Assembly (NCBI GenBank): GCA_904384245.1
Contig: CAJFJM010000002.1
Coordinates: 1 to 54,315 of the forward strand
DNA: 54,315 bases
From: an uncultured Clostridia bacterium
GTDB lineage: Bacteria > Bacillota > Clostridia > TANB77 > CAG-508
Direction of reading: 5' to 3'
Each line of letters begins with the position of its first letter. Position 1 is the first letter of the stretch. Below, piece after piece: positions 1,503 to 45,325 of the stretch. A model generated the notes under the pieces. It was not told the origin of the DNA, made no database searches, and saw only the letters and a list, made by a program, of their open reading frames with translations. The position numbers and the translations under genes are program-made.

Positions 1503-1628
1503 ATAAGAAAAGTAGCAAAGCTACATAAGCTTAGCTCACGTGGGTCTTTTTAAAAGACTTTTTTCTTGTTGTATACGGAAAAATCCAATTAGGGTCGAGA
1601 AAGAAGTTGTTTTTTCTTATACAATAAG
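1503..1628 (+). repeat. Intergenic repeat family, copy A (~125 nt)
   Basis: It aligns along its whole length with 11388-11511: ATAAGAAAAGTA..GAAGCTACATAAGCTT.GCTCACGTG..TCTTTTTAAA...CTTTTCTTGTTGTATACGGAAAAATCCA......TTTTTCT(T)ATACAATAA. An internal stem is formed by cttgttgtata / tatacaataag. Confidence 0.8.
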
Positions 1629-1720
1629 ATATTGTTAATTACTATTAAAAATCAACTTAATTTTAATTTATTAGCTCCTTAAATTTTAATATTTCATTTA
1701 AATTATCAATTTTCATATTT

Positions 1721-2482
1721 TTAATCTGTTACATAATAAGCTAATTCTATAGCAATATCAAAATGTCCTGAATCATGTTGTGTTCCTGCAACTTCTCCTT
1801 TTTTATGCCTTTCATCCCATTTTGGTGCATCTAATAAATCACCACTTGTGAAAAATGTATATAGGTTAAGTCCTCTAAAATCACACATCGCCTGAATTGC
1901 TGAACATTCCATCTCTACAGATATACATCCATCTTCTTTATGTTTTTTAAAATTATTAACGGTTTCTCTATAAAAAGAATCTGTAGTCCAAGTTTTCCCT
2001 TTAACATAAGGAATATTGTTTTCCTTCATAAAATTTTCAACTATATTTGCATTTTTTATTTTTATATAATCTGAAGCTGGCGCATAATGATAAGAAGTTC
2101 CTTCATCTCTATAAGCTTCGGTTGGTATAATAACTCTTCCATGTGTTATTTCCTTATTTAAACATCCACATCCACCGAAAACTATATATTTATTAGTTTT
2201 TATTTCTGAAATAGTATCTTCTATTGAACCTACACATGCAGGTGCACCTACATAAGTTTTGTAAAAAGCAAATTTTTTTCCTTTGTATTCAATTTGATAA
2301 ATTGGTGTGATTCCAGTAGCAAATTTGAATTGTGCTATTTTATTGCATTGGTAGTTTTCTAAAACAAATTTTTCAATAACGTGTGAAAAAGTAATGATAC
2401 ATGCATCTACTATTGGTGCATTTTCCTTTGGATGAGGATTTATTATTGCTTCAGATTTATCATCAAAACTATCTATTATCAT
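1721..2482 (-). CDS. Nucleoside phosphorylase family protein (PNP/UDP-1 fold)
   Basis: 253 aa. Motifs typical of uridine/purine nucleoside phosphorylase-like proteins are present: FGGCGCL...PTEAYRDEGTSYHY...SVEMECSAI. Confidence 0.65.
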   Translation of the reverse strand: MIIDSFDDKSEAIINPHPKENAPIVDACIITFSHVIEKFVLENYQCNKIAQFKFATGITPIYQIEYKGKKFAFYKTYVGAPACVGSIEDTISEIKTNKYIVFGGCGCLNKEITHGRVIIPTEAYRDEGTSYHYAPASDYIKIKNANIVENFMKENNIPYVKGKTWTTDSFYRETVNNFKKHKEDGCISVEMECSAIQAMCDFRGLNLYTFFTSGDLLDAPKWDERHKKGEVAGTQHDSGHFDIAIELAYYVTD

Positions 2483-2546
2483 AGTTTTTCTCCTTTCAAT
2501 AAATACTTCTTTTTCTGCCTACTAATTACTAATTTTATACTAATTA

Positions 2547-5138
2547 TTAGTTTTTAATTATTAGTTTATTATTCTCACAATCTATTAACACTTTACTTGA
2601 AGGTGATATTTTTTGTTCTAATATATTTTGTGCAATTAATGTTTCTAGCTTTTTGGTTACAAATCTTTTTAATGGCCTTGCTCCATAAACTTGGTCATAT
2701 CCATTGTCTATTAGGTAGTTTTTTGCTTCTTGTGTTAATTCTAATGTTATATGTTTGTCTTCTAGCCTTTTTTCTAGGTCTTTTATTAGTAAGTCTAATA
2801 TTTTTGATATTTGTTCTTTTTGTAATGGTTTATAGAATATTATTTCATCTAGACGGTTTAGAAATTCTGGTCTGAAGCTTTTCTTTAATAGTTCATTTAC
2901 TTTTTCTTTGGCTTCTTGTGATATTTCTCCTTTTTCGTTTATTCCTTCTAATATATATTCAGATCCTAAGTTTGATGTTAGTATTATTATTGTGTTTTTG
3001 AAGTCTACTGTTCTTCCTTGCGAGTCTGTTATACGTCCATCGTCTAAGACTTGTAACAAAATATTAAATACGTCTGGATGTGCCTTTTCTACTTCATCAA
3101 ATAGTATTACTGAATATGGTTTTCTTCTTACCGCTTCTGTAAGTTGTCCTCCTTCTTCATATCCTACATATCCTGGAGGTGCTCCTATTAACCTTGATAC
3201 TGAGTATTTTTCCATGTATTCTGACATGTCTATTCTTATCATGTTGTGTTCGTCATCGAATAGGCATTCTGCTAGGCTTTTTGCTAGTTCTGTTTTTCCT
3301 ACACCTGTTGGTCCTAGGAATAGGAATGAACCTATTGGTTTTTTAGGGTCGCTTATTCCTGCTCTTGACCTCATTATTGCTTCTGATACGTCTTCTACTG
3401 CTTCGTCTTGGCCTATTACTCTTTTATGTAATAGGTCTTTTAGATGTAAGATTTTTTCTCTTTCGCCTTCCATTAGTTTTGTTACTGGTATTCCTGTCCA
3501 TTTTGATACTATTTTTGCAATTTCTTCTTCTGTTACTTTATTTCTTAGTAATACATTTTCTTTGTTATTTTCTTCTGCTTCTTCTTTTTCTAATTCTTTT
3601 TGGAGTTCTGGTAGTTTTCCATATCTTAGTTCTGCTACTTTGTTTAAGTCATAATTTCTTTCTGCTTGTTCTATTTCTCCATTTGTTTTTTCTATTTCTT
3701 CTCTTAATTTTTGTACTTTTTCTATTGATTGTTTTTCGTTTTCCCATTTTGTTTTCATTGAGTTGAATTTTGTTTTTAGTTCTGCTTTTTCTTTTTGAAT
3801 TTCTTCTAGTCTTTGTTTTGAAAATTCGTCTTTTTCTTTGCTAAGTGCTGTTTCTTCTATTTCTAGTTGCATTATTTTTCTTGATACTTCGTCTAGTTCT
3901 GTTGGCATTGATTTCATTTCTGTTTTTATTAGACTACATGCTTCATCTACTAGGTCTATTGCTTTGTCTGGTAAGAATCTGTCTGATATATATCTGTTTG
4001 ATAGTGTTGCTGCTGCAATTAGGCTGTTGTCTGATATTTTTACTCCGTGGAATACTTCGTATCTTTCTTTTATTCCTCTTAAGATTGATATTGTGTCTTC
4101 TACACTTGGTTCGTCTACCATTACTGGTTGGAATCTTCTTTCTAATGCTTGGTCTTTTTCTATATATTGTCTGTATTCATTTAGTGTTGTTGCTCCTATA
4201 CAGTGTAATTCTCCTCTTGCAAGCATTGGTTTTAGTAGGTTTCCTGCGTCCATTGCTCCTTCTGTTTTTCCTGCTCCTACTATTGTGTGTAGCTCGTCTA
4301 TGAATAGGATTATTTTTCCTTCACTCTTTTTTACTTCTTGAAGTACTGCTTTTAGTCTTTCTTCGAACTCTCCTCTATATTTTGCTCCTGCGACCAGTGA
4401 CCCCATGTCTAGTGCAAATATTGTGCTGTCTTTTAGTCCTTCTGGTACATCTCCTCTTACTATTCTTAATGCTAATCCTTCTGCTATTGCTGTTTTTCCT
4501 ACACCTGGCTCTCCTATTAGGCATGGATTATTTTTTGTTTTTCTTGATAGTATCATTATTACATCTCTTATTTCTGAATCTCTGCCTATTACTGGGTCTA
4601 ATTTTTGCTGACGGGCTAGTTCTACTAGGTCTTGCCCATATTTTTTTAGTACATCATATGTACTTTCTGGATTGTCACTTGTTACTCTTGTGTTTCCTCT
4701 TATGCTTGCTAGCGCTTTTAGGAATTCGTTTTTATTTAGTCCGTATTTTTTGAATAGATTTTTTAAGTTGCTATTTGCATTGTCTATTATTGCTAGCATT
4801 ATGTGTTCTACTGAGATGTATTCGTCTTTCATTTTGTTTGCTATTTTTTCTGAGTTTGTTAGTACAGCATCTACATCTTGTGATACATACATTGAGTTTG
4901 CTTGTCTTGCTCCTCCTGTTATTTTGGGGAAGCTGTTTATTTTGCTTTCTAGCTCTTCTTCAAACTTTTGTGGTATGTTCATCTTTTTTAGTAGTTCTTT
5001 TATGAGACTGTCTTCTTGTTTTAGTAGTGCTAGTAGTAGGTGCTCTTGTTCTATTTGTGCGTTTTGATATTCTATTGATAGATTTTGTGCTTCTTGTATT
5101 GCTTCTAGTGATTTTTGTGTGAATTTTTGTGCATCCAT
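2547..5138 (-). CDS. clpB: ATP-dependent chaperone ClpB
   Basis: 863 aa. It has a Clp N-domain, two AAA+ modules ([10 protein letters not shown] and [10 protein letters not shown] Walker A motifs), a long coiled-coil middle domain and the C-terminal D2-small domain. Confidence 0.97.
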
Positions 5139-5282
5139 TTTTAATTCCCCCTTTTTTATTTTTTATATTTACTTTATATTTATAGTCTAATTGAATTATA
5201 TCATATTTATCATTTTTATATGATTTTTTGTTGGCAATTTTGTGAAAATTTTGTGCTTTTTTATGTGTTGTTTCCTATACAA

Positions 5283-8015: not shown

Positions 8016-8113
8016 TTTTGACCTCCATTAAATTTTTTGATTACAAATAGTTAATCTATATTATATCATGGATTTTATTTTTATGCAATAATTATGTTAA
8101 CATTTTTTTGGGG

Positions 8114-8258
8114 CGGATGATAGGGACAGGCTATTTTGTCCGGATGAACGTTAGGGACACTCTATTTTGTTCACAAAACATTTTTTTATATTTTGTGAAC
8201 GAAATGGAGTGTCCCTAACGTTCATTTTTCGGACAAAATGGCCTGTCCCTATCATCCG
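8114..8258. repeat. Long near-perfect palindrome (~145 bp), copy 1
   Basis: The left arm cggatgatagggacaggctattttgtccgg..aacgttagggacactctattttgttcacaaaaca mirrors the right arm tattttgtgaacgaaatggagtgtccctaacgtt..cggacaaaatggcctgtccctatcatccg. Confidence 0.9.
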
Positions 8259-8268
8259 AATTCAGATT

Positions 8269-9921: not shown

Positions 9922-10071
9922 CCGGATGATAGGGACAGGTGATTTCGTCCGAGAAAAGAACGTTAGGGACCACTCCATTTCGTTCACAAAACATTTTTTA
10001 TATTTTGTGAACGAAATGGAGTGTCCCTAACGTTCTTTTTCCGGACAAAATCGCCTGTCCCTATCATCCGG
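9922..10071. repeat. Long near-perfect palindrome (~150 bp), copy 2
   Basis: ccggatgatagggacaggtgatttcgtccg...aacgttagggac...ttcacaaaacattttttatattttgtgaa...gtccctaacgtt...cggacaaaatcgcctgtccctatcatccgg. It is highly similar to 8114-8258. Confidence 0.9.
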
Positions 10072-10364
10072 TTCTTTTCTAAAATTAATTTTATCTCTTT
10101 ATTTATTTTTCCTCTTGTTACACTTAAAGTGACTTCATCTTTTGGTTTTTTTGTGTAAATATATTTTCTCAAGTCATTCATTGTGTTTAATTCTATTCCA
10201 TCAATTTTTGTAATTATATCTCCTTCTTTGAGTTCTGTGTTGTCTGCTGGGCTGTTTTTTGTTATTTGTGCTACATATAGTCCTTTTTCAAAATTTAGAC
10301 TTTTATTTAAGTATGGTATTACTTCTTTATCATATGCGTATATTCCTATTCCGGGTTTCTTCAA
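9984..10364 (-). CDS. htrA: HtrA/DegP-family protease, PDZ-domain fragment (second half of a frameshifted gene)
   Basis: KPGIGIYAYDKE...GLYVAQITKNSPADNTELKEGDIITKIDGIEL is a PDZ domain. It overlaps the protease-domain ORF in another frame. The last ~30 codons (RMIGTGDFVRKKNVRDTPFRSQNIKNVL) are encoded by the palindromic repeat. Confidence 0.8.
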   Translation of the reverse strand: MKKPGIGIYAYDKEVIPYLNKSLNFEKGLYVAQITKNSPADNTELKEGDIITKIDGIELNTMNDLRKYIYTKKPKDEVTLSVTRGKINKEIKLILEKNRMIGTGDFVRKKNVRDTPFRSQNIKNVL

Positions 10365-11193
10365 ATGTTCCTGTGTTTTTAAAACTTTCTATGATTGGTT
10401 TTACTATGTCTATTGGTATTGCAAATCCTATTCCTTCTGCTGATGATATTTTTACTGTGTTTATTCCTATCATTTCTCCATTTGCTGTAATTAACGGACC
10501 TCCACTGTTTCCTGGATTTATTGTTGCATCTGTTTGTATTAAATCTGTCATGTATGATACTTGGTCAATTTCTTGGATTTTTATTGTTCTATTTTTTGCA
10601 CTTATGATTCCTGATGTTACTGTTCTTCTAAATTCAAATCCTATTGGATTTCCTATTGCATATACTGTTTCTCCTACTCTTGTGTTTTCTGGCTCTCCTA
10701 ATGTTATTGTTTGTAAATTTTTTGCATTTATTTTTGTTATTGATAAATCTATATCTGAGTCACTCCACATTACTGTTCCATCATATGTGTTTCCATTTTC
10801 TAATGTGATATAACATTTACTGTATTTTCCGCCTGTTACATGTTCATTGCTTAAGATATATCCGTCTTCTGAAACTATTACTCCTGTTCCTAATCCTAAT
10901 TCTTCTTCACTGCTTGTTCCAAAAATTGAACTTCCTACATTTTTTAATTTTGATATCCCAACTACACTTTGGGTTGTTTTTTCTATTATGTCTGCAATTT
11001 TTGTGCTTTTTTCTTGTACTTCTTCCACAGTTTGTTCATTTTCTGTGGATAATGTTTTTTGAGTTTCATAGTCTGATGTTTTTATTTCTATTTTTGTGTA
11101 TGTAGTGTATAAATAAAATCCTAAAATCCATAATAATATGAGGATTATTGCTGTTATTATTATTTTCTTTCTTGTGTTTCTTCTTTTTCTCAT
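10330..11193 (-). CDS. htrA: HtrA/DegP-family serine protease, TM anchor plus trypsin-like domain (first half of a frameshifted gene)
   Basis: GTGVIVSEDGYILSNEHV...DSDIDLS...GNSGGPLI gives the His/Asp/Ser triad. The likely start is the ATG at 11193, 8 nt after the SD gaggtga (the ORF track starts at 11205). The frame breaks at the CCC run at 10353-10355. Confidence 0.85.
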   Translation of the reverse strand: MRKRRNTRKKIIITAIILILLWILGFYLYTTYTKIEIKTSDYETQKTLSTENEQTVEEVQEKSTKIADIIEKTTQSVVGISKLKNVGSSIFGTSSEEELGLGTGVIVSEDGYILSNEHVTGGKYSKCYITLENGNTYDGTVMWSDSDIDLSITKINAKNLQTITLGEPENTRVGETVYAIGNPIGFEFRRTVTSGIISAKNRTIKIQEIDQVSYMTDLIQTDATINPGNSGGPLITANGEMIGINTVKISSAEGIGFAIPIDIVKPIIESFKNTGTFEETRNRNIRI

Positions 11194-11387
11194 AGAAAAT
11201 ATCACCTCAAAATTATTATTCTCTTATTTTTTTATTTTAGTCATTTTATATGATTGTTTTTTTTATTTTCTTATTTTCTTTTAACATTAAAAATTTATTT
11301 TTTGTTCTATTATTCTAGTATTATATATTTATTTTTTGTTTAATTATTTTAGCATTTTAAATTTGTTCTTTTTTTTATTATTTTAAT

Positions 11388-11637: not shown

Positions 11638-13362
11638 TTATACCAATTCTTTTAATTCCTCATATCTTTTTACTTTTTGTGTTGTTGTTTTCTTTAGTCC
11701 TTGTGTTGTTATTGTTATACTTTTTATGTGTTTAAATATTGGTAATGTTTGATTTATTTTTTTGATTTCTTCCCAGATTATTTGCTTATATTCTTGTTCT
11801 GTTTTTTCTCCTAGATATTCTTTTATGTGTTCTTTGTCATATACTATTTTTGCACATAGCATTGTGTCTGTTGTGCTTTTGTCTCTTGAATATACTATTG
11901 ATTCTGCTACATATGGTATTTTATTTATTAGGAATTCTATTTCTTGTGGATATACATTTTTTCCGTTTTTTAATACTATTATATCTTTTTTTCTTCCTGT
12001 TATGAAAATAAATCCATCTTTGTCTATGTATCCGTAATCTCCTGTTCTAAACCAACCATTTTTTAAGACTTTTTTTGTTTCTTCTTCATTTTTGTAATAT
12101 CCTAGCATTACATTTGGTCCTTTTACTGTTATTTCTCCTTCTCCATTTTCGTCTTTGTCTTCTATTTTTACTTGGAGACTTGGAAGTGCTAGTCCTACTG
12201 AGCCTGGTCTTTTTTCTTTGTCTGTTTCTGCTGAGATTACTGGCGATGTTTCTGTTAGTCCATAGCCTTGTACTAATGATATTCCTAAATTATTATATCC
12301 TATAATTGTGTCTTTGTTCATTGGTGCTGCTCCATATAAAACTACTCTTAGATTTCCTCCAAAATTATCTAGAATTTGTTTAAATATTACTTTTCTTAAG
12401 TCAATTTTGCATTTTAGTAATGCATTTGAGATTTTTGTCATTTTGTTTATTAGTTTTGTTTTTCCTTTTTCTTCTATTGCTTTTAATATTTTTTTGTACA
12501 TTGTTTCTAATACTAGTGGTACTGCTACAAAGACTGATACTTTGTATTCTGCTAAATTTTTTTGTATGTATTTTAATCCATCACAAAAAGCTACTGTTGC
12601 TCCACTGTAAAATCCGTAAAGGAATGTTATTGTACATTCAAATGTGTGATGTATTGGTAAGAATGATAATAGTGTGTCTGTATCATAGATTTTTACAAAT
12701 GTTGCTATATCTGTTAAATCAGAGCATATGTTTTTCTGTGTTAACATGACTGCTTTTGGTTCATTTGTTGTTCCTGATGTAAATAGCATTATAGACATTT
12801 TATTTGGGTCAATTTTTATTTTTTCATATTTTGTATCTCCATTTTCTAGTAATTTTTTTCCTTCTTTTACTAATTCTTGTACAGTTTTGGATTTTTTATC
12901 ATTTTTTTCTGTGCATATGATTTCTTTTATTTTTTCTTCTGATTTTTGTGTTTCTAATGCAATATCTAAATATTTTTTGTCACATATAATTGCTTCTGCT
13001 CCACTTCTTATAATTAGTCTTTGCATTTCATTGTCTGGTAATGCTTTATCTATTGGAACTACTACCATGTTTCCACATGTTATTGCTAGATAGCTTATAC
13101 ACCATTCATAACTGTTATTTCCTACTAAAACTATTTTCTTTCCTTCTAATCCTAATTTTAATAATGTTGTACTTAATGCTTTTATATCTTCTCCTGTTTG
13201 TTTATATGTTTTTTCTATGTATTCAGGCTCTTTTGCTGTATAATCTTTTTTGTATTTATATGCTATGTTTTCAGCATAATGTGTACATGAATAATCTACT
13301 AAATCTCTATAGTCTTTTACTGGTCTTGATTCATAAACTTTTCTATTTTCATTATCACCCAT
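11638..13362 (-). CDS. AMP-dependent long-chain acyl-CoA synthetase / fatty-acyl-AMP ligase
   Basis: 574 aa. Adenylate-forming motifs are present: LFTSGTTNEPKAVMLTQKN, GYGLTETS, TGDYGYIDKDGF. It is divergent from the NRPS gene. Confidence 0.85.
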   Translation of the reverse strand: MGDNENRKVYESRPVKDYRDLVDYSCTHYAENIAYKYKKDYTAKEPEYIEKTYKQTGEDIKALSTTLLKLGLEGKKIVLVGNNSYEWCISYLAITCGNMVVVPIDKALPDNEMQRLIIRSGAEAIICDKKYLDIALETQKSEEKIKEIICTEKNDKKSKTVQELVKEGKKLLENGDTKYEKIKIDPNKMSIMLFTSGTTNEPKAVMLTQKNICSDLTDIATFVKIYDTDTLLSFLPIHHTFECTITFLYGFYSGATVAFCDGLKYIQKNLAEYKVSVFVAVPLVLETMYKKILKAIEEKGKTKLINKMTKISNALLKCKIDLRKVIFKQILDNFGGNLRVVLYGAAPMNKDTIIGYNNLGISLVQGYGLTETSPVISAETDKEKRPGSVGLALPSLQVKIEDKDENGEGEITVKGPNVMLGYYKNEEETKKVLKNGWFRTGDYGYIDKDGFIFITGRKKDIIVLKNGKNVYPQEIEFLINKIPYVAESIVYSRDKSTTDTMLCAKIVYDKEHIKEYLGEKTEQEYKQIIWEEIKKINQTLPIFKHIKSITITTQGLKKTTTQKVKRYEELKELV

Positions 13363-13469
13363 TTTTTATTCCTTCTTCCTTTTTTTCTTTTTTTGTTTAT
13401 TTTATATTATTTTATTAAAATTTACAAGTCCATGTTTTCGACATTTTTTTGCTTTTTTTTACAAAATAT

Positions 13470-13498
13470 TTGATTTTTCTTCATGCTACTAGTATAAT
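13470..13498 (+). promoter_or_regulatory. Sigma-70-type promoter upstream of the NRPS gene
   Basis: TTGATT (13470-13475), a 17-nt spacer, then TATAAT (13493-13498), about 107 nt upstream of the ATG. Confidence 0.55.
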
Positions 13499-13604
13499 AT
13501 GGTTAATGTTATTTTATTTATTGAATCAAGGTGTGGTTAGAAAGATTATACTTTCATATCAAAATGTGCCTTTTTTAATGAAATAAGGAAGGAATGAGAA
13601 TATT

Positions 13605-16600
13605 ATGAAAAAAAGTTATCCTTTAACAATCCCTCAAGAATCTATTTGGTTAACAGATAAATTTTATGAATATACTAGTATATCTAATCTTGGTGGAACT
13701 TTATTGATAAAAGAGAAAGTTGATTTTGATTTGTTAAATAAATCTATCAATTTATTTATAGAGCAAAATGATGGTATTAGACTTTCTTTTAATTTTGAGA
13801 ATGGCTCTCTTTATCAATTTGTTAAAGATTATTCATTTGAGAATTTTCCTGTTTTTGATGTCAATTCTGATGAGGAATTGCATAATTTGGAAAAGTCTTT
13901 TATGCATGAGAGATTTACTATTTCAAATTTGCCTTTATATAGATTTAATTTAATAAAATTGAAAAATGGTTTTGGTGGCTTTAATATTATTATGCATCAT
14001 CTTATTTCTGATGCTTGGAGTATGAGTCTTTTAGTTACTAAAATTATTGATATTTATTCTTGTTTATTAAAAAATCAAACAATTTCTGTTGAAAATGCTC
14101 CATCTTATATTGATTATATTGAGTCTGAGCAAAAATATTTAGAATCTGAAAAATTTAAAAAAGATAAATTGTTTTGGGAGGATAAATTTAATACTTGTCC
14201 ATCCTGTACTTCATTTTCGCAAAAAAATTCCCAGAATGCTTCTCAAAAAGCAAAAAGAAAAATATTCTCTTTAGATAATAGCTCTAAAATTGTCGAATTT
14301 TGTAAAAATACTGATTTATCAGTTTTTACATTTTTGATGAGTGTTTTTTCTATATATTTATATAGAATTTCTGGTGTAGAAGATATTATTATTGGTTCTC
14401 CTATTTTAAATAGGAATGGGCTTAAGGAAAAAAATATGATGGGACTTTTTATAAATACTTTGCCTGTAAAAATAGAAATACATGATAATCCATCTTTTTC
14501 TGCTTTGGCAAAACATGTGTCTGATACACAATTTTCTATGTTTAGGCATCATAAATTTCCTTATTCTAGAATATTGGAGTTTGTGAGAGATAAATATAAA
14601 TTTTCTAATAATTTGTATGATACAATTATTTCTTATCAAAATGCGAGAGATAATTCTGATACTTCAGATGTTAAATATACAACTAATTGGGACTTTAATG
14701 GCGCTATTTCTAATAGTTTGGATATTCATATATATGATTTAGATAATACTGGTATTTTGAAATTGTTTTATGATTATAGACTTGATAAATTTAGTGAAGA
14801 TGATATTAGTGATATTCATAATAGAATTTTATATATAATTGACCAAATTATTTCTAATCCTGATATTTTGGTTAATGATTTAGAAATTGTTACTCCAGAT
14901 GAAAAAAATAATTTATTGTATAAGTTTAATGATACTTTTTTAGATTATCCTAAAAATAAAACTATAAATGAATTGTTTGAAGATCAAGTTTTGGTAACAC
15001 CTGATAAAAAGGCTGTTGCTTTTGGTGATTCTACTTTGACTTATTATGAATTAAATAAAAAAGCTAACCAGTTGGCTAATTTTTTAAGAAAGGAAAAAAA
15101 TATAAAATCTAATACTTTTGTTGGTATTCTTACTAAACGTTCTTTAGAGATGGCTGTTGGTATTTTAGCTATTTTAAAAGCTGGTGCTACATATGTTCCT
15201 ATTGACCCAGAATATCCTGAAGATAGGGTTTCTTATATGATAGAAGATTCTGGTGCTAAACTTATTTTGGTAGATAATTATACACAAGATCTTTATAAAT
15301 TAAAAAATGTTGTTAATATTGATTTATCAAATGAATTTTATAATAATTATTCAGATGAGAATTTACCTGTTTTGAATACACCTGATGATTTAATGTATTT
15401 AATTTATACTTCTGGTTCTACTGGTAAACCAAAAGGTGTTATGTTGATGCATAAAAATGTTAATAATTATTTACATGGTTTAAAGGATAAAATCGATTTT
15501 TCTAGCGAAAAAGTGATTGTTTCTGTTACTACGATTTGTTTTGACATTTTTGTTACTGAATTTTGGGGTGGATTGTTAAATGGTTTAACAGTTGTAATTG
15601 CAAATGAGCAAGAACAGAATATTGCTTCTGATTTGAGCAAAATTTGTTCTAAATATAATGTTAATATGATACAAACAACACCTTCTAGATTTACTGCTTT
15701 ACTTGCGGAGAATTCGGACTTTTTGAATACTATTACAGATTTAATGGTTGGTGGTGAGGCTTTACCTAAAACATTGTTAAAACAATTACATAATTTCCCT
15801 TGGATTAAAATTTTTAATATGTATGGTCCAACTGAGACTGCTGTTTGGTCAACTATTAAAGAATCTCCTGTGGAAGAAAATATTACTATTGGTACTCCAA
15901 TTGCAAATACTGTTGTTTATATTTTAGATGATAATTTAAAATTACTTCCTCCAAATATTCCTGGAAATTTATATATTGGTGGAGATGGAGTTTGCAAGGG
16001 ATATTATAATAGACCTGACCTTACAAAAAATGTTTTTGTTAAATCTCCTTTTGATGATTCTATTATATATAATACTAAGGATTTGGCTTATATACAAAAA
16101 GATGGAGAGATTGTTCATTTGGGTAGAAGTGATTTTCAAGCTAAAGTTCATGGGTTTAGAGTTGAACTTGGTGAAATTGAGAATGCTATTATGACTTATC
16201 CTGATATTACTAATGCTGTTGTTTTGTTACAAGATAATTCTTTAAATGCTTTTATAGTTGCAAATTCTACTATTGAAGCACAGGATGTTATAACTTATCT
16301 TATGAAATCTTTACCTCATTATATGATTCCAAAAACTATAACACAAATTGATGAGATGCCTCTAACTCCTAATGGAAAAATAAATAGAAAAAGTCCTATT
16401 TTAAAAGCTACATATCAAGTTTCTAAAAATCAAGTTTTACCTAGAAATGATACTGAAAAATTGCTTTATAATTTGTTTAAGGAAACTGTTAATTTGGATA
16501 TTGGTGTTACTGATAATATATTTGAACATGGTGTGGATTCTTTGATGATTATTAAACTTGTAAGCAAATTATATCTTTATAATATAAATTTAAGCATACA

Positions 16601-17846
16601 GGATTTTTATAATAATCCATCTATTGAGGGAATTTCTAAATTGATTTGTGAACATACAAATAAAAGTGATGTGCCTGATTCTTCATCTTCTAAACATATT
16701 GTTAAAATTTCTGATATTCAGAAACCTTTGTATTCTGAATTATCTGATAAAAAAGATGGAATTCTATTAACTGGTGTTACTGGTTTTTTAGGTATACATG
16801 TACTAGAATCTTTAATTCTTCATTCTGATTATAAGATATATTGTAGTATTAGGACTAAAAATGGGCAGGCTTCAAAATCAAGACTTATTGATAGACTTAA
16901 TTATTATTTTGATGGTAAATATATTGATTTAATTGAGAAGAGAATTTTTGTTGTTGATTCTAATATTACTGATAATTATTTTGGTTTGACTTTGGATAAT
17001 TATAATAAACTTGGTAAGAAGATTTTTAGTGTTATACATTGTGCTGCTGATGTTAGACATTATGGCAATTATTCTTCTTCTGAAAAAATAAATATAACAG
17101 CTACTAAAAATATCATTCAATTTTGTTTAGATTTTAATGCTGTTCTTAATCATATTTCTACAATGACTGTTTCTGGATATGGTTTGGTTGATGTTAACTA
17201 TACTGGTATATATGATGAAGATAAATTTTATATTGGACAAAATTATGCCGATAATATCTATGTTAAAACTAAGTTTTTGGCAGAAGAAGAAGTTTTCAAG
17301 GCTTTGGATAAAGGGTTAATTGCAAATATTTATAGAATTGGTAATTTAACAAATAGATTTTCTGATTATAAATTTCAATTTAATTCATATGAAAATGGAT
17401 TTATAAATAAACTAAAATCTATTAAACATATTAGGTTATTGCCTGAATCTTTGAGAGATTATCAATTGGAACTTACTCCTGTTGATTTGTGCTCTGAGGC
17501 CATTGTTAAACTTGCTATTTCTTATAAGAAAAAATATAATGTTAATGTTTTTCATTTATATAATAATAATTATATTTCTATGAATATGATTACTAATATA
17601 TTGACTTATTATAATTTAAATGTTAAATTTGTACCTGATGATGAGTTTGAAAAAGCTGTTGCTTCTTCCATTGCAACATCTAAAGAGAATGCTGGATTTA
17701 TTGAGCAATTTAATATTAAAAATGTTCTTGGAACTAATCAATTTGCTTTTTCTAACGAGAAAACATTATCTATTCTTAAATCATTAGATTTTAGTTGGAA
17801 GAATATTACAGAAGATTATTTGAAATTTATAATAAGGGGACTTTAG
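13605..17846 (+). CDS. Single-module nonribosomal peptide synthetase, C-A-T-R (terminal thioester reductase)
   Basis: 1413 aa. C domain: MHHLISDAWS (HHxxxD). A domain: LIYTSGSTGKPKGV, YGPTE, GNLYIGGDGVCKGYY, PNGKINRK. PCP: FEHGVDSLMIIKL. R domain: LLTGVTGFLGIHVLESL plus YVKTK. Confidence 0.95.
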   Translation: MKKSYPLTIPQESIWLTDKFYEYTSISNLGGTLLIKEKVDFDLLNKSINLFIEQNDGIRLSFNFENGSLYQFVKDYSFENFPVFDVNSDEELHNLEKSFMHERFTISNLPLYRFNLIKLKNGFGGFNIIMHHLISDAWSMSLLVTKIIDIYSCLLKNQTISVENAPSYIDYIESEQKYLESEKFKKDKLFWEDKFNTCPSCTSFSQKNSQNASQKAKRKIFSLDNSSKIVEFCKNTDLSVFTFLMSVFSIYLYRISGVEDIIIGSPILNRNGLKEKNMMGLFINTLPVKIEIHDNPSFSALAKHVSDTQFSMFRHHKFPYSRILEFVRDKYKFSNNLYDTIISYQNARDNSDTSDVKYTTNWDFNGAISNSLDIHIYDLDNTGILKLFYDYRLDKFSEDDISDIHNRILYIIDQIISNPDILVNDLEIVTPDEKNNLLYKFNDTFLDYPKNKTINELFEDQVLVTPDKKAVAFGDSTLTYYELNKKANQLANFLRKEKNIKSNTFVGILTKRSLEMAVGILAILKAGATYVPIDPEYPEDRVSYMIEDSGAKLILVDNYTQDLYKLKNVVNIDLSNEFYNNYSDENLPVLNTPDDLMYLIYTSGSTGKPKGVMLMHKNVNNYLHGLKDKIDFSSEKVIVSVTTICFDIFVTEFWGGLLNGLTVVIANEQEQNIASDLSKICSKYNVNMIQTTPSRFTALLAENSDFLNTITDLMVGGEALPKTLLKQLHNFPWIKIFNMYGPTETAVWSTIKESPVEENITIGTPIANTVVYILDDNLKLLPPNIPGNLYIGGDGVCKGYYNRPDLTKNVFVKSPFDDSIIYNTKDLAYIQKDGEIVHLGRSDFQAKVHGFRVELGEIENAIMTYPDITNAVVLLQDNSLNAFIVANSTIEAQDVITYLMKSLPHYMIPKTITQIDEMPLTPNGKINRKSPILKATYQVSKNQVLPRNDTEKLLYNLFKETVNLDIGVTDNIFEHGVDSLMIIKLVSKLYLYNINLSIQDFYNNPSIEGISKLICEHTNKSDVPDSSSSKHIVKISDIQKPLYSELSDKKDGILLTGVTGFLGIHVLESLILHSDYKIYCSIRTKNGQASKSRLIDRLNYYFDGKYIDLIEKRIFVVDSNITDNYFGLTLDNYNKLGKKIFSVIHCAADVRHYGNYSSSEKINITATKNIIQFCLDFNAVLNHISTMTVSGYGLVDVNYTGIYDEDKFYIGQNYADNIYVKTKFLAEEEVFKALDKGLIANIYRIGNLTNRFSDYKFQFNSYENGFINKLKSIKHIRLLPESLRDYQLELTPVDLCSEAIVKLAISYKKKYNVNVFHLYNNNYISMNMITNILTYYNLNVKFVPDDEFEKAVASSIATSKENAGFIEQFNIKNVLGTNQFAFSNEKTLSILKSLDFSWKNITEDYLKFIIRGL

Positions 17847-17847
17847 T

Positions 17848-19845
17848 ATGAAAAAAATTTTTAATAAAATACCTACTAATATGAAATTGACTTTAGCTTG
17901 TGTTGCAGGATTGATAATTATTGGTTTAATGTATTTTCCTTTAATACCTAAACTTCTTAATTATCCTCCTGACTCAATAAATAATGATTTCCAAATAAAA
18001 GTTAACTTTTTTCATTATACAACACAATATGCTTCTATAGTTGCTTTTGCTATTATTACCTTTTTAATTGTTTTACCTATTTTATTTAGAAAAGTTAACA
18101 AAATTGATAATATTACTAATTTTGATTTAAATAAAAATTCTAAGGAATTATTGCCTATTATAAAGACTTGTTTTAATTTTCCTATATTTATGTTACTTGT
18201 GTTTTTAATTTTACCACCTTTACTTGTTTTTATAGGTTTGATTTTACTAAAGCAAGAATTTGTATTTTCACTTAAAACTACTTTTATTATATTTTCAATG
18301 TGTGCTTTACTTGCTTTACTAATTTATTCTTTTAGCCGTTTTCTTTTTGAAAAAGTGCTAAAGAAAATTAAAATTACTGATAATATGTATGGAATTAGAG
18401 TTAATTTAAAAAATAAGATTTTACTTCAACTTTTGCCTTTACTTTTATTTACAATTGTATTTACTTTTTTAATTTTGTATAGTCAACTTACAGAGATAAA
18501 AGGTGATTCATTAAATGATTATTATACACAGACATTAGTTAGTAAAATAGAAGATACAAATTTAAAGTCTGTTGATGAGGCAAAACAAATGTTAGAAAGT
18601 ATTGATTTACGTTCTCCTGATGATTCTATTTTTATACTTTCTGCAGATGGTGATACATATTATTCTGAAACTGAATTGTCTGACTTTTTTAAAACATATA
18701 TTTTCGATTTTGAAGAAAAACATCCTGGACATACATATGAATACTATGGAAATCCTGTTCAAGGGTCTTATATAAGAGAAAATATAAATGGTGAAGATTG
18801 GATTTTAGGTATTAGATATTCTGTTTTTACAAATGATACTCTATTTTCAATAATACCTTTATTTACAATTGTTATTTGTGTAAATTTTTTCTTTATTGTT
18901 GTTATTTCTGTTAATTACGGAAATGAATTAAAGGTTATTGCAGATGGTTTAAGTAGTATTTCTAGAAATTCTTCTAATTATATGACTTCTAAACTTCCTG
19001 TATATTCAAATGATGAAATAGGAGATTTGACTATTGCTTTTAATAGAATTCAAGATTTGACAAATAGCTATATTAAACAGCTTCATGATAATCAAGATAC
19101 TTTAATGGAAAAAGAGCGTCTTGCTTCTTTAGGACAACTTATTGGTGGTATTGCTCATAACTTAAAAACACCTATTATGTCTATATCTGGTGCTGCTGAG
19201 GGATTGACTGATTTAATTAAAGAATATGATGCTTCTATTGATAATCCTCAAGTTAATTCTCAAGATCATCATGATATTGCAAAAGATATGTCTTCTTGGG
19301 TTTCTAAAATTAAAGATTATACAAGCTATATGTCTGATATTATTACTGCTGTAAAGGGTCAAGCTGTTACTTTATCTGAGGTTCAGAATGTTAGCTTTGA
19401 TATTGAGGAACTTCTTAAACGTGTTGATATTTTGATGAAACATGAACTTAAAAATGCTTTAATTTATTTAAGAGTTTCTGTAAATGTGCCAGAAAATACT
19501 ACTCTTAATGGAGATATAAATAGCTTGGTTCAAGTTATAAATAATATGATTTCTAATTCAATTCAGGCTTATGATGGTAAACCTGAGCAAAATATAGATT
19601 TAAGTGTTTCTTTTGCAGATGATAATAAGAATATTGTTATTGCTGTTAAAGATTATGGACCTGGTTTGTCTGATAAGGTTAAGAGTAAATTGTTTAATGA
19701 GATGATTACTACTAAGGGTAAAAATGGTACTGGTCTTGGTTTATATATATCTTATTCTACTATTAAGGCTCATTTTAATGGAGATATTAAGTTCGAGTCT
19801 GAAGATGGTAAGGGTACTACTTTTTATATTATTTTACCTTTGTGA
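17848..19845 (+). CDS. Membrane sensor histidine kinase (multi-TM, extracytoplasmic Cache-like region, HAMP, HisKA-like, HATPase_c)
   Basis: 665 aa. DEIGDLTIAFNRI (HAMP), LGQLIGGIAHNLKTPI (H-box), NMISNSIQA (N-box), GTGLGLYISYS (G2). The ATG lies 1 nt after the NRPS stop codon. Confidence 0.9.
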   Translation: MKKIFNKIPTNMKLTLACVAGLIIIGLMYFPLIPKLLNYPPDSINNDFQIKVNFFHYTTQYASIVAFAIITFLIVLPILFRKVNKIDNITNFDLNKNSKELLPIIKTCFNFPIFMLLVFLILPPLLVFIGLILLKQEFVFSLKTTFIIFSMCALLALLIYSFSRFLFEKVLKKIKITDNMYGIRVNLKNKILLQLLPLLLFTIVFTFLILYSQLTEIKGDSLNDYYTQTLVSKIEDTNLKSVDEAKQMLESIDLRSPDDSIFILSADGDTYYSETELSDFFKTYIFDFEEKHPGHTYEYYGNPVQGSYIRENINGEDWILGIRYSVFTNDTLFSIIPLFTIVICVNFFFIVVISVNYGNELKVIADGLSSISRNSSNYMTSKLPVYSNDEIGDLTIAFNRIQDLTNSYIKQLHDNQDTLMEKERLASLGQLIGGIAHNLKTPIMSISGAAEGLTDLIKEYDASIDNPQVNSQDHHDIAKDMSSWVSKIKDYTSYMSDIITAVKGQAVTLSEVQNVSFDIEELLKRVDILMKHELKNALIYLRVSVNVPENTTLNGDINSLVQVINNMISNSIQAYDGKPEQNIDLSVSFADDNKNIVIAVKDYGPGLSDKVKSKLFNEMITTKGKNGTGLGLYISYSTIKAHFNGDIKFESEDGKGTTFYIILPL

Positions 19846-19905
19846 TTTTGAGTATTAGGATTTTATAATTTATAATTTGTGGCAATAAATATGTCACCTC
19901 AAAGA

Positions 19906-19957
19906 AGTTGTTATATAGACTTTAAAAATTTTAAAGTTTATATAACGACTTTTTTTG
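19906..19957 (+). terminator. Long hairpin plus T-run after the kinase gene
   Basis: agttgttatatagactttaaaa / ttttaaagtttatataacgact is a ~22-bp stem with two mismatches, followed by ttttttt. Confidence 0.6.
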
Positions 19958-20032
19958 AGACTACTCCACAATAATTAGAGTTTTGAACTATAAGTTTTGA
20001 CTTTTCTTATACATTAAATTTTACGAAACCTC

Positions 20033-20061
20033 TTGCTTTTTATTAAACTTATTTATATAAT
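20033..20061 (+). promoter_or_regulatory. Sigma-70-type promoter for the response-regulator gene
   Basis: TTGCTT, a 17-nt spacer, then TATAAT. The SD aagggggg follows before the ATG at 20094. Confidence 0.5.
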
Positions 20062-20093
20062 ATGTTTAAATTTAGGTATCAAGGGGGGTAAAT

Positions 20094-21155
20094 ATGAGAA
20101 TTGGTTCACAAAATACTCAAAATACTGAAAATTTTAAGTATAAAATTTTAGCAGTTGATGATGAAGAAGGAATTGTAGATTCTTTATCTATATTTTTAAA
20201 ACGTTCAGGTTATGATTATACAGGTGTTACTGATCCAATGAAAGCTATAGAACTTGTAAAATCTGAGCATTTTGATTTAATGATTTTGGACTTCATAATG
20301 ACACCTTTTCATGGAGACCAAGTTGTTGAAGAAATACGTAAGTTTAATAAAGATTTATATATTTTGTTACTTACAGGTCATAAGGATTTAGCTCCTCCAC
20401 TTGAAACTATTCGTAGATTAGATATTCAAGGGTATTGTGAAAAAAGTGATAAATTTGACCAGTTGTTGTTACTTATAGAGTCTGGTATAAAATCTATTGA
20501 ACAGATGAATAATATAAAGGAAATAAATGAGAAATTAGCTGAAACATATGAAAAGCTAGAACATGCTTATTTAGAGTCTATTCAGACTTTGCGTTATACA
20601 ATTGAGGCTAAAGATATTTATACTCGTGGTCATTCTGATAGAGTTGCTGCTTATTCTGTTTTGATTGGTAAAAAAATGGGATTGTCTGATGAAGATTTAA
20701 AGACTCTTCAAATTGGTGGATTATTCCATGATATTGGAAAAATTGGTGTGCCTGATAGTATTATTCAAAAAGCTGGTAAACTTAATGATGATGAGTATTC
20801 ACAAATTAAACAACATCCTAATATTGGTGTTCATATTTTGTCTAATGCTAGTATTTTTAAGGATATTTTGCCTATAGTTGAACATCATCATGAAAAATAT
20901 GATGGTACAGGATACCCTGGAAGACTTGCTGGTGAAGATATTCCATTCTTGGCTAGAATTGCTGCTGTTGCAGATAGTTTTGATGCTATGGCTTCTAAGA
21001 GGGCTTATCGTGATTCTTTGCCTATGGATAAGATTATCTCTGAGTTTATGCGTTGTCGTGGTACTCAGTTTGATCCTAAGATTGATGATGTTTTTATTGA
21101 TATTTTGGAGAATCATTTTGATGAGATTAGGGAGATTCAGGAGAAATATAAATAA
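20094..21155 (+). CDS. Response regulator with HD-GYP output domain (RpfG-type c-di-GMP phosphodiesterase)
   Basis: 353 aa. A REC domain (ILAVDDEEG...DLMILDFIMT) is followed by HD...HDIGKIGVP...HHEKYDGTGYPGRL. Confidence 0.9.
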   Translation: MRIGSQNTQNTENFKYKILAVDDEEGIVDSLSIFLKRSGYDYTGVTDPMKAIELVKSEHFDLMILDFIMTPFHGDQVVEEIRKFNKDLYILLLTGHKDLAPPLETIRRLDIQGYCEKSDKFDQLLLLIESGIKSIEQMNNIKEINEKLAETYEKLEHAYLESIQTLRYTIEAKDIYTRGHSDRVAAYSVLIGKKMGLSDEDLKTLQIGGLFHDIGKIGVPDSIIQKAGKLNDDEYSQIKQHPNIGVHILSNASIFKDILPIVEHHHEKYDGTGYPGRLAGEDIPFLARIAAVADSFDAMASKRAYRDSLPMDKIISEFMRCRGTQFDPKIDDVFIDILENHFDEIREIQEKYK

Positions 21156-23482: not shown

Positions 23483-24784
23483 TTATTTTGTTATGCAAAA
23501 TACTGCATATAGAGGAACTGATTTTATTTTGTTTTCAATTCCAAAATTGTTGGCTGATATTCTTATTGCCAGGTCCTTTTTTGTGTTTTGCATAAAATAA
23601 TTTAGACTTTTTGATTTTTTGTTTTCATTTGCTTTTACTTCTATTGGAATAACACCTTTTTGTGTGTCAATTAAAAAATCTATTTCTGCAACTTGATTTT
23701 TTGCCCAATAATATAAACTAATCCCATTTGCTTGTAATTCATTTGCTACATAATTTTCTGCTATGACACCTTTATATTGAAAATTTTCATTTAGAAGAAT
23801 TTTATTTCTGGGAATTTCCAGTAATTCTGTTAATATTCCTGTGTCACTTAAATATAATTTGAATTTTTGTTCATCCATAAAACCTTTTAATGGTGTTTCG
23901 AATTTTTCTACAAAATAGCATGGTATTACTAATTTACTTGCTATAAGCCAATCTAAACTTGTTTCAAAGTCTCTTCTTCTTGCATATGGTTCTATTTTAG
24001 AAAATTGAAATTTTTTATTTTCTTTTGCAAGTTGATTTGGTATGTTTTTATATATTTTTTCTATTTTTATTGTTTCATAATAGTTTAATGTGTATTTTTC
24101 CATATCTGCTAAATATGCTTCAATAATTGATTTTAATAAATTATTATCAAATTTTAAGATTTCCAAATTGTTTTTTATTATATTATCTACTGCTATTGGC
24201 ATTCCTCCAGTTGCTAAGAATAGTCTATAATAATTTAATAATTTTTCATGAATAGGATTACTCATTTTTTTATTTTTGTTAAAACAGTCTTTTATTACTT
24301 CTATTGCTTGTTCATAATTGATTGCTTTTAAAAATTCTTCAAATGTCATTGGGTACATGTATTTTATTATCACTTTTCCAACTGGAAAAGAATTTTTAAA
24401 TCTTTTTAGTTTTACTCCTAATAGTGAGCCTGCACAAACTATTTTATATGGAAATTCTGCTTCGCAAAAATATTTAAGTGCTGATATTAAGTTTTCTGAT
24501 TCTTGTATTTCATCAAAAAATATTATGGTTTCTTCTTTTATTAAACGTCCCAAGTATAATTCCATTTTTTTTATTTTTTCTTCTGTGTTTATTGGTTCGT
24601 CAAATATTTCTATTATTCCTTTATTATTCATTAAATTTATATAGATATAATCATTATAATTTTCTTTGCAGAATTTGTTTATTATATATGTTTTTCCTAT
24701 TTGTCTTGCTCCTATTACCATTAGAGGTGTATTTTGATTTTTATTTTTCCATTCTTCTAATTCTCTTAAAAAGTTCCTTTGCAT
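23483..24784 (-). CDS. AAA+ ATPase with C-terminal DUF4143-type domain
   Basis: 433 aa. Walker A is GARQIGKTY and Walker B is IIFFDEIQ. The overall layout matches the common ATP-binding protein (AAA_14/DUF4143) family. Confidence 0.75.
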   Translation of the reverse strand: MQRNFLRELEEWKNKNQNTPLMVIGARQIGKTYIINKFCKENYNDYIYINLMNNKGIIEIFDEPINTEEKIKKMELYLGRLIKEETIIFFDEIQESENLISALKYFCEAEFPYKIVCAGSLLGVKLKRFKNSFPVGKVIIKYMYPMTFEEFLKAINYEQAIEVIKDCFNKNKKMSNPIHEKLLNYYRLFLATGGMPIAVDNIIKNNLEILKFDNNLLKSIIEAYLADMEKYTLNYYETIKIEKIYKNIPNQLAKENKKFQFSKIEPYARRRDFETSLDWLIASKLVIPCYFVEKFETPLKGFMDEQKFKLYLSDTGILTELLEIPRNKILLNENFQYKGVIAENYVANELQANGISLYYWAKNQVAEIDFLIDTQKGVIPIEVKANENKKSKSLNYFMQNTKKDLAIRISANNFGIENKIKSVPLYAVFCITK

Positions 24785-44983: not shown

Positions 44984-45325
44984 AAAAACCACTCCTTTTC
45001 TTTATTTACAAAAGGTAAATATATAATTTAAAATCTTTTGTTTGAAGCTTTTTTTAATTTGTTATTGACTTTATTATTTTAAATCGCTTTATATTACTAT
45101 AATAGCAGACTTTTGCAAATTTTTCAAATGATGAAAAAAGTTTAAATCAGCAAACAAAAATAACCAACAAAAAAACACATCTGTAATTTGGCTGTTGTAG
45201 ATGTGTTTTTCATATTTGACATAGTTGGCATTTACCTTTGATGGTAGATGCTTTTTAAATACTATTTATTATATTACAAAAATGTGATATATTATTGTAA
45301 AATAATAAGTAAAGGATGCAGTGTT

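Follow-up and report, generated by a model that had tools for sequence, protein, structure and literature searches.

The window analysed here is the whole 54,315 nt stretch of contig CAJFJM010000002.1 (GCA_904384245.1) from an uncultured Clostridia bacterium (TANB77; CAG-508), and our comparison with related loci demonstrated that two parts of one gene cluster are replaced together: a single-module nonribosomal peptide synthetase (NRPS) with condensation (C), adenylation (A), carrier (T) and reductase (R) domains, and the sensor half of the histidine kinase encoded directly downstream of it. The kinase core, the REC-HD-GYP response regulator and the flanking genes stay conserved through these replacements. 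Our favoured interpretation, in which we have moderate confidence, is a signal-synthase/receptor cassette, where the NRPS product would be sensed by the co-translated kinase and the kinase would in turn signal to the HD-GYP regulator. The closest relatives of the window, which has a G+C content of about 26%, were uncultured gut Clostridia of chicken, other animals and humans. The features on which the argument depends are as follows.

13400-19000, plus strand: exchangeable cassette, comprising the entire NRPS and the kinase sensor half (from sliding DNA identity, domain-wise protein identities and pairwise statistics)
13605-17846, plus strand: single-module C-A-T-R NRPS, 1413 aa (Pfam domains and motifs)
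17848-19845, plus strand: histidine kinase, 665 aa (Pfam HisKA and HATPase_c)
17848-19002, plus strand: kinase sensor half, aa 1-385, varying together with the NRPS
19003-19845, plus strand: kinase transmitter half, aa 386-665, whose conservation follows host genome and regulator
20094-21155, plus strand: REC-HD-GYP response regulator, 353 aa (Pfam Response_reg, HD_5 and HD)
13363-13604: divergent intergenic region, 242 bp, left edge of the variable cassette
11638-13362, minus strand: acyl-CoA-ligase-like adenylate-forming enzyme, 574 aa (Pfam AMP-binding, 9e-70, and AMP-binding_C_3)
9984-11205, minus strand: HtrA-type serine protease (Pfam Trypsin_2 and PDZ), split by a frameshift near 10345-10365

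A preliminary description of this DNA, made from its letters alone, had placed the ligase and NRPS genes divergently around a 242-bp gap and the kinase start 1 nt beyond the NRPS stop, and both arrangements were recovered. The ligase open reading frame (ORF) occupies 11638-13362 on the minus strand and the NRPS starts at an ATG at 13605; the NRPS stop codon TAG lies at 17844-17846 and the kinase ATG, preceded by AAGGGG, at 17848, with no terminator-like site between the two genes.

Domain-wise comparison of the window with three related loci (L014, L021 and L023) showed identities of 35-42% for the NRPS domains (C, A, T and R) and of 32-41% for the sensor parts of the kinase, while the surrounding proteins and the remainder of the kinase were much better conserved, with 70-72% for HtrA, 67-79% for the ligase, 84-88% for the DHp domain, 70-82% for the CA domain, 86-92% for REC, 77-85% for HD-GYP and 86-90% for Tex. 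The same boundary was visible at the nucleotide level, as sliding DNA identity to L021 and L023 falls from about 0.8 to about 0.55 from position 13400 or so onwards, and ranges from about 0.5 to 0.65 within 13400-19000 and from 0.75 to 0.9 outside. Between different cassettes DNA homology resumes at kinase residue 385 or 386, which is the start of the second HAMP helix, and this was seen in three independent pairs. The clearest case of exchange was provided by L051 and L058, where one flank (3.9 kb) is 99.0% identical, the other (7.7 kb) 97.7%, and the cassettes are non-homologous: L051 carries an NRPS with an Asn code and its sensor, and L058 carries a ligase, an NRPS with the code DVAYLGGICK and its sensor, so that in this comparison the ligase falls within the variable block.

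Pairwise statistics were calculated for 27 non-redundant loci (351 pairs). NRPS identity correlated with sensor identity (Spearman rho 0.62) and not with the identity of Tex (0.01), while the kinase core followed the response regulator (0.74) and Tex (0.60) more closely than the NRPS (0.23). In a partial Mantel test the correlation of sensor with NRPS given Tex was 0.63, a value reached by none of 2000 permutations, and no pair among the 351 combined NRPS identity below 50% with sensor identity above 60%, or the reverse. Close hosts (Tex identity of at least 84%) provided 88 pairs with NRPS identity below 50%, and in these pairs the sensors were 24-38% and the kinase cores 61-93% identical. 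It is important to note that the correlation with the sensor was 0.56 for the distal C domain and 0.60 for the adjacent R domain, in comparison to at most 0.24 for the kinase core that abuts the sensor, and that the extracytoplasmic domain of the sensor co-varies with the NRPS as much as its membrane part does.

Alternatively, the kinase may simply hitch-hike in the NRPS operon and sense an unrelated environmental or envelope cue, with joint replacement resulting merely from contiguous DNA and the right breakpoint settling where sensor meets transmitter, the one place at which a chimeric kinase remains compatible with its regulator. The contiguity of the two segments, the small number of independent exchange events (19 sensor clusters) and the frequent presence nearby of HtrA, a typical envelope-stress protease, all fit this explanation, as does a sensor in L019 that is more similar to that of the window than the L019 NRPS is. 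We nevertheless regard it as unlikely, since the ligase gene lies 242 bp from the NRPS on its other side and was not co-replaced in L014, L021 or L023, and a right breakpoint at the NRPS/kinase junction, the easiest site for one, was found in none of the 351 pairs. The co-variation of the extracytoplasmic domain to the same extent as the membrane part, and the recurrence of the linkage both with two sensor architectures that are unrelated to each other and in five or more genomic contexts, also argue against it.

The extent of this linkage was determined by scanning metagenome contigs with a kinase alignment, which matched more than 458 loci, of which the best 80, many of them from human gut, were kept; the resulting counts are not de-duplicated. 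C, A and R domains were encoded directly upstream of the kinase and on the same strand in every one of the 56 loci whose upstream DNA reached 4.4 kb, and an R domain was seen in six of the seven loci with shorter upstream DNA, the exception being a divergent arrangement. Conservation of the NRPS-kinase adjacency in related genomes was the test set in advance by the preliminary description, and the adjacency was thus present in 56/56 informative loci. The gap between the two genes was mostly between -32 and +17 nt, and the regulator gene followed within 1.5 kb of the kinase in 54 of 63 loci. Relatives reached through either the NRPS or the kinase shared the recurring order HtrA-(ligase)-NRPS-kinase-regulator-Tex.

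Rearranged loci also retained the pair. In L078, L082 and L111 the whole NRPS-kinase block had the opposite orientation with respect to regulator/Tex and ligase/HtrA; in L103 it was found in an unrelated context, beside an HlyD/ABC/MacB efflux system and with no regulator, Tex or HtrA nearby; and in L019 and L020 the kinase was divergent from genes for a carrier protein, a C-A-R NRPS and a ligase, again without a regulator or Tex nearby. Kinases of a different sensor type (HisKA_7TM) directly follow R-terminated NRPSs in L004, L024, L026 and L028. In L004 (Clostridium sp. CAG:1219) a C-A-T-R NRPS is followed by the 7TM kinase with a 0-nt gap, in L024 a C-A-T-R NRPS is likewise followed by a 7TM kinase, and in L026, from a Hadza gut sample, the NRPS has the order C-A-T-C-T-R. 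Both dimodular NRPSs that were sampled (2/2) had a 7TM kinase directly downstream, and in one of these loci (L031) the order NRPS-kinase-REC/HD-GYP-Tex was the same as in the window. In their transmitter halves the window kinase and the 7TM kinases of L028 and L031 are 60-64% identical and have the common H-box LASLGQLIGGIAHNL, and their sensors are unrelated; the range for transmitters behind 7TM sensors beside dimodular NRPSs was 55-65%. With the adjacency kept, surviving rearrangement and unrelated contexts, and the NRPS co-varying with the sensor half, the earlier view that synthetase and kinase are hard-wired gained comparative support, and the link is not fortuitous.

Several further features of these loci were recorded. 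In L019 (also in L020) the gene before that of the NRPS codes for a stand-alone carrier protein of 129 aa. The efflux genes of L103 (HlyD/ABC/MacB-FtsX; 1596-5252, minus strand) are divergent from the NRPS-kinase pair and form a candidate product exporter. The NRPS of L026 (2158-8001; also in L027) is a 1947-aa protein whose second module lacks an A domain, and the 7TM kinase begins on its last base.

Close spacing of this kind could also be interpreted as protein-protein coupling, in which the multi-helix N-terminus of the kinase docks to, or exports for, the NRPS, so that co-variation would mark an interface and translational coupling would serve co-assembly. The 1-nt gap or overlaps between the genes and the need of the predicted lipophilic product to reach the membrane are in line with such a role. 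We consider it highly improbable, as the extracytoplasmic domain co-varies too, the NRPS and kinase genes are divergent in L019, two unrelated sensor folds would both have had to evolve docking, and in L103 the pair is accompanied by an efflux system dedicated to export.

The substrate predicted from the A-domain code changes with the sensor type across loci. Clustering of 72 sensors at 50% identity produced 19 clusters, each associated with one class of A-domain code, with L019 as a partial exception. The code classes were Gly-like, Asn (DLTKIGEVGK), Thr (DFWNIGMVHK), Lys-like, His-like, Met-like and several unknown. The A domains of L014, L021 and L023 had the codes DLTKIGEVGK or DLTKIGEVCK, which we take to be Asn signatures. 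In a paper on A-domain codes this signature is mentioned only among Asp/Asn-type domains, as also taking beta-cyano-alanine (PMC12283262).

The window NRPS itself had been described as a C-A-T-R enzyme, and all four Pfam domains and their motifs were located at the expected gene, as listed here.

13608-14918, plus strand: C domain (Condensation, 9e-84, aa 2-438), with HHLISD at 13995-14012 (aa 131-136)
14976-16379, plus strand: A domain (AMP-binding, 3.5e-84, aa 458-801, and AMP-binding_C, aa 857-925), with the code DITQMGMVWK
16464-16646, plus strand: T domain (PP-binding, 1e-08, aa 954-1014), with the Ser of GVDSL at 16530-16544 (aa 976-980)
16761-17828, plus strand: R domain (NAD_binding_4, 2.4e-39, aa 1055-1300), with TGVTGFLG at 16770-16793 (aa 1056-1063) and YVKTK at 17259-17273 (aa 1219-1223)

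The A domain scored 400 bits with TIGR01733, above the cut-off of 317, and has the lysine equivalent to Lys517, while the thioester-reductase model TIGR01746 gave 147 bits on the R domain, below its cut-off of 213. The whole NRPS aligns full-length to the MxcG model with 438 bits, far under the cut-off of 2300. Single-module homologues formed about 18 clusters of 60-98% identity, and numerous dimodular relatives (C-A-T-C-A-T-R, about 2470 aa) were 33-47% identical to the window NRPS; from their architecture and habitat we presume that these are probably the published gut-Clostridia peptide-aldehyde family. In BLAST comparisons with 100 dimodular proteins, the window C domain matched the first condensation domain (C1; mean identity 40%, 329 bits) better than the second (C2; 25%, 123 bits) in every case (100/100), and the window T and R domains matched the final module, so that the NRPS looks like a dimodular synthetase collapsed to C1-A-T-R.

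The preliminary description had proposed a starter C domain. The position of the domain agrees with this proposal, as it begins at aa 2, is N-terminal without an upstream carrier domain and is the counterpart of C1 in the dimodular relatives, which fits an N-acylated product. The nearest solved structures, which can be read as a similarity ranking only, do not settle starter versus LCL type: the best match was to the LCL domain of TycC (4e-28), followed by the starter domains of RzmA (8.5e-21) and SrfAA (1e-19) and by CDA-C1 (6e-14).

The A-domain code was read through a GrsA fragment that had been verified against 1AMU, and close relatives share the pattern D-I-T-[QT]-[MLI]-G-[MI]-V-[WM]-K. 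The window code DITQMGMVWK differs from the Gly code DILQLGMIWK at positions 239 (T/L), 299 (M/L) and 330 (V/I), and L091, a relative of the window locus, has exactly DILQLGMIWK. Published assignments give DILQLGMIWK as a Gly code and list L/M at 299, L/M at 322, I/V at 330 and W at 331 as Gly-type residues (PMC12283262), which places nine of the ten window positions within the known Gly range and suggests a Gly-like A domain. The supplement of that paper contained no DIT or DILQ entries. An apparently exceptional match to the Gly domain of LgrA in the Protein Data Bank (PDB; 612 bits) was discarded, as its score sums two A domains and the Gly domain alone gives 331 bits, like other matches.

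The predicted product of the window NRPS is an N-acyl-glycinal, which may be further reduced to an N-acyl-ethanolamine. A pyrazinone, as proposed in the preliminary description, cannot arise from one N-acylated residue, because pyrazinone formation needs a dipeptide aldehyde with a free amine. No phosphopantetheinyl transferase (PPTase) gene was found among 30 window genes scanned, the last six ORFs (46294-54305) lying outside the scan. In several other loci the NRPS gene is divided into at least two ORFs beside an intact kinase (L017/L018, 5724-9996; L004, 7947-12289; L015, 5763-9932; and L106), with identical breaks in L017 and L018, which come from two samples. Such breaks reflect assembly errors or, alternatively, signal-null 'listener' variants.

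Aldehyde chemistry also raises the question of whether the product is directed outwards, as an inhibitor of host or competitor proteases or of the bacterium's own proteases such as HtrA, in line with what has been proposed for the dimodular gut family, with the kinase tracking product level or damage to adjust the physiology of the producer rather than density or kin. This interpretation has attractions, as aldehydes are reactive, the dimodular relatives (33-47% identical) are probably the gut family reported to make protease-inhibiting peptide aldehydes, and the HtrA serine protease stays linked through rearrangements. A damage sensor, on the other hand, need not change whenever amino-acid specificity changes, and alternative cassettes within one species are a signature of recognition systems; for these reasons we think it quite improbable. 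The kinase would still sense the product in such a system, so that its mechanism overlaps with that of the signal-synthase/receptor reading and only the biological purpose differs. HtrA was itself considered as a possible target of the aldehyde; it is linked in window-type loci and absent elsewhere.

The sensor half of the kinase was modelled with AlphaFold (aa 1-420; pLDDT 84.7, pTM 0.80). In the model five membrane helices are followed by an alpha/beta extracytoplasmic domain, a sixth membrane helix and HAMP-like helices. The extracytoplasmic domain (aa 236-328 approximately; nt 18553-18831) would be PAS/PDC-like, with the order helix, two strands, helix, three strands. The first HAMP helix forms the end of the sensor half (aa 1-385), and the second, SNDEIGDLTIAFN at 19006-19044, belongs to the transmitter half. 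The Cache/HAMP label of the preliminary description is weakly supported, since both Pfam matches were sub-threshold (HAMP, E=0.0025; dCache_1, E=0.032, 14 bits where the cut-off is 45). Foldseek found no match to the sensor model below E=0.03; the local similarities that it gave, all weak, were to sensor domains of the PAS, PDC and Cache kinds. The sensor region had 220 representatives in a library of 1.84 billion proteins that holds one representative per 50%-identity cluster. The transmitter half has HisKA (3e-06; 27.6 bits, cut-off 26.9) and HATPase_c (5e-20) domains, an H-box GGIAHNLKTP at 19144-19173 that includes His437, and the HATPase_c motifs NNMISNS, DYGPGL and GTGLGL (N and G boxes). 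In view of its joint exchange with the NRPS, the kinase probably senses the NRPS product.

The regulator, a probable partner of this kinase, has a REC domain at 20145-20474 (Response_reg, 4e-16) with the acceptor Asp66 in MILDF, and an HD-GYP domain at 20598-21083 (HD_5, 9e-38) with the HD pair in FHDIGK and the motif HHHEKYDGTGYP. Pfam found no DNA-binding domain in it, and the two-component system is therefore not simply a transcriptional regulator of the NRPS gene. Its best PDB matches were V-cGAP3 (5Z7C, 5e-45), a phosphodiesterase specific for 3'3'-cGAMP and the closest solved relative, and PmGH (4MCW, 1e-40), which comes next and acts on c-di-GMP. The c-di-GMP output of the preliminary description was an assumption, and neither GGDEF, EAL or PilZ genes nor a riboswitch were found in the window. 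The domain search covered 20 other window ORFs, the last six (46294-54305) lying outside the scan, and at Rfam gathering thresholds the window contained no riboswitch and four tRNAs only.

Taken as a pathway, the favoured reading would operate as follows. The NRPS would load one amino acid, for which its code is Gly-like, and the starter-position C domain would N-acylate it with a fatty acyl thioester that may come from the neighbouring CoA-ligase-like enzyme or, where the ligase is absent, from primary metabolism. The R domain would then release a lipophilic N-acyl amino aldehyde, in the window the predicted glycinal or its ethanolamine. The kinase, translated from the same mRNA, would recognise this product or a close derivative through its variable membrane and extracytoplasmic sensor half, and the conserved transmitter half would pass phosphate to the REC-HD-GYP regulator, changing the level of a cyclic dinucleotide. 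As strains and species differ in their NRPS/sensor pairs while transmitter, regulator and chromosome stay conserved, the system behaves like the pherotypes of a cell-cell or self-sensing signal.

Several points weigh against this reading. The product, ligand binding and phosphotransfer are predictions from sequence, and the Gly assignment depends on similarity over a 10-residue code. The NRPS and sensor-coding DNA are contiguous, so block recombination could replace both without a functional tie, and the independent replacement events number about 10-19, not 351. In L019, a partial exception, sensor identity to the window is about 49% but NRPS identity only 31%, and the L019 NRPS also has another code and a separate carrier protein. 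The Asn code occurs with three sensor clusters, and the side chain alone therefore cannot define specificity. The regulator gene was not adjacent to the pair in nine of 63 loci, and no feedback route from HD-GYP output to NRPS expression was found among a leader riboswitch, window riboswitches and GGDEF/PilZ genes.

The favoured reading was reached because the exchange pattern is that of agr and comQXP, the gene set parallels that of Rpf/DSF and Pvf provides a precedent for an NRPS autoinducer. In agr of Staphylococcus and comQXP of Bacillus, the signal genes and the N-terminal sensor half of the receptor are hypervariable, and the kinase half and the regulator are conserved. The window cassette shows the same variable-block pattern, with alternative blocks within one species, and differs in that its signal would be made without the ribosome, probably as a lipid-like amino aldehyde, in place of a processed ribosomal peptide, and in that the predicted output is a cyclic-dinucleotide phosphodiesterase and not a transcription factor. 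The resemblance is, by this analogy, one of evolutionary pattern and not of membership.

The Rpf/DSF system of Xanthomonas consists of the acyl-CoA ligase RpfB, the synthase RpfF, the membrane kinase RpfC and the REC-HD-GYP protein RpfG (PMC6337780). The window locus similarly combines an acyl-CoA-ligase-like enzyme, a candidate synthase for a lipid-like signal, a membrane kinase with several helices and a REC-HD-GYP regulator whose output is enzymatic, but its synthase is an NRPS and not a crotonase (none was found in the locus with Pfam), its kinase is not a hybrid, and the phylum differs. Cassette exchange resembling pherotypes is not described for Rpf in PMC6337780. The window locus would thus work like Rpf without being an Rpf member, and the part of RpfB in signal turnover is also a possible role for the window ligase.

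In the Pvf system of Pseudomonas, PvfC is an A-T-R enzyme. This small NRPS makes autoinducers whose receptor is still unknown (PMC10194917). The window locus, in comparison, encodes a candidate receptor next to the synthase. The synthase gene of the CAI-1 system, cqsA, also lies beside the gene of a multi-helix membrane kinase (CqsS) that senses a lipid-like carbonyl signal, although CqsA is a PLP enzyme and not an NRPS.

Reductase-terminated NRPSs of gut Clostridia make (N-acyl) dipeptide aldehydes and pyrazinones, with ruminopeptin (Schneider and Balskus 2018) among the products (PMC12327764). The window NRPS shares reductive release with this family, and differs in its Gly-like code and in having one module and not two, so that it cannot give a pyrazinone. 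Guo et al. (2017) reportedly described the family as making protease-inhibiting peptide aldehydes. The C-A-T-R order of the window NRPS is that of MxcG (myxochelin) and of the last module of LgrD (linear gramicidin), a C-A(Gly)-T-R unit from which a glycinal is released and then reduced to ethanolamine. The window NRPS has no aryl carrier or DHB genes, unlike MxcG, from which organism and context also differ, and neither the MxcG nor the LgrD system is known to have an attached kinase.

The individual parts of the locus are all of known kinds. The preliminary description knew of no report of such a linkage, and we likewise found no description of the NRPS/kinase/HD-GYP linkage, of the HD-GYP output or of joint synthetase-sensor exchange in the searchable literature, which does not cover the primary paper on the gut NRPS family. 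As a whole, that description was supported in part, and lacked the five N-terminal membrane helices, the Rpf/DSF, agr/comQXP and Pvf analogies, the Gly-like code and the cassette polymorphism.

Gut-Clostridia peptide-aldehyde NRPSs have so far been discussed mainly as sources of host-protease inhibitors, and the NRPS-kinase cassette provides a testable receptor hypothesis, which predicts that each signal has its cognate receptor (for Gly, Asn, Thr, Lys and other types). We would tentatively extend it, with somewhat less assurance than an even chance, to a large, hitherto undescribed family of polymorphic cell-cell recognition systems in gut Clostridia, human-gut lineages included, where N-acyl amino or peptide aldehydes or the corresponding alcohols (in the window perhaps N-acyl-ethanolamine-like lipids) from single-module and dimodular R-terminated NRPSs act as pheromones with co-evolving kinases and HD-GYP regulators. 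If true, 'host-protease-inhibiting' gut peptide aldehydes would be foremost bacterial signals, with the amino-acid code of the NRPS defining the pherotype, and a non-ribosomal lipid-like aldehyde class would join the quorum-sensing chemistries. The locus would then represent a Gram-positive counterpart of the Rpf/HD-GYP pathway and a natural source of orthogonal signal/receptor sets for the engineering of gut bacteria. A Gly-type product, if reduced to N-acyl-ethanolamine, would also resemble endocannabinoid-like lipids of the host.

The ligase beside the NRPS is missing from about half of the related cassettes and is therefore a dispensable accessory partner; where present, it occurs whatever the cassette type. 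It resembles CoA ligases more than acyl-AMP ligases, as its best PDB matches were CoA ligases (malonyl-CoA synthetase and FadD13), those to fatty acyl-AMP ligases (FAAL) were weak, and its best NCBIfam match, long-chain-fatty-acid--CoA ligase, was under the cut-off. In L019 (2852-4773 and 12087-13843; also in L020) the divergent NRPS/kinase pair has a ligase paralogue on either side; both paralogues are broken into two or three ORFs in L019, and the one beyond the kinase is broken likewise in L020, an independent sample. HtrA adjoins the cassette in most window-type loci and is still linked in the rearranged L019 and L078, but neither L103 nor the loci with 7TM kinases have it. Its gene is also split in L006, L010 and L017, at other positions, and is intact in L012, L014, L019, L021 and L023.

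The long hairpin noted earlier behind the kinase was recovered as an intrinsic-terminator-like structure.

19905-19951, plus strand: hairpin of 20 pairs followed by a T-run, 3' of the kinase gene (fold z-score -5.7; 0 of 200 shuffles fold as well)

The promoter described as a good one for the regulator gene stands in part, as the sequence TTGCTT-17-TATAAT does exist upstream, but TTGCTT matches the -35 consensus at three of six positions. Promoter-like sites were as frequent in the window as in shuffled sequences (75 found, 77 expected), and the regulator promoter is therefore not more than expected by chance. A similar site, TTGATT-17-TATAAT, lies between ligase and NRPS (13470-13498, plus strand), and its two hexamers are kept only in the closest relatives, L001 and L034, in the intergenic alignment. 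The window has about 75 nt more than these relatives between this site and the NRPS start codon. The NRPS leader (13363-13604) gave no Rfam match, even at E<=1.

Other observations concern the remainder of the window. Two copies of a near-perfect palindromic intergenic element of about 150 nt, relatively G+C-rich, were found at 8113-8259 and 9922-10071; their 49-nt arms are 92% complementary and enclose an inner hairpin of 24-38 nt, with 0 matches expected by chance, and the element looks like a REP- or MITE-like repeat. A gene for an AAA_14/DUF4143 ATPase (23483-24784, minus strand) lies between Tex and GNAT/ABC-F genes, and because the corresponding place has no copy in L006 and two in L010, it may be a mobile or variable insertion. 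On the minus strand, 382-1230 holds a truncated UPF0236 (transposase-like) ORF, and sigma-70 family (ECF-like) genes are present at 43506-43985 (minus strand) and 45248-46270 (plus strand). A cluster of three tRNA genes occupies 47836-48115 on the minus strand, and the remaining genes are of a housekeeping kind, including ClpB-like, dapA/dapB, aspartokinase, CorA and ABC-F genes.

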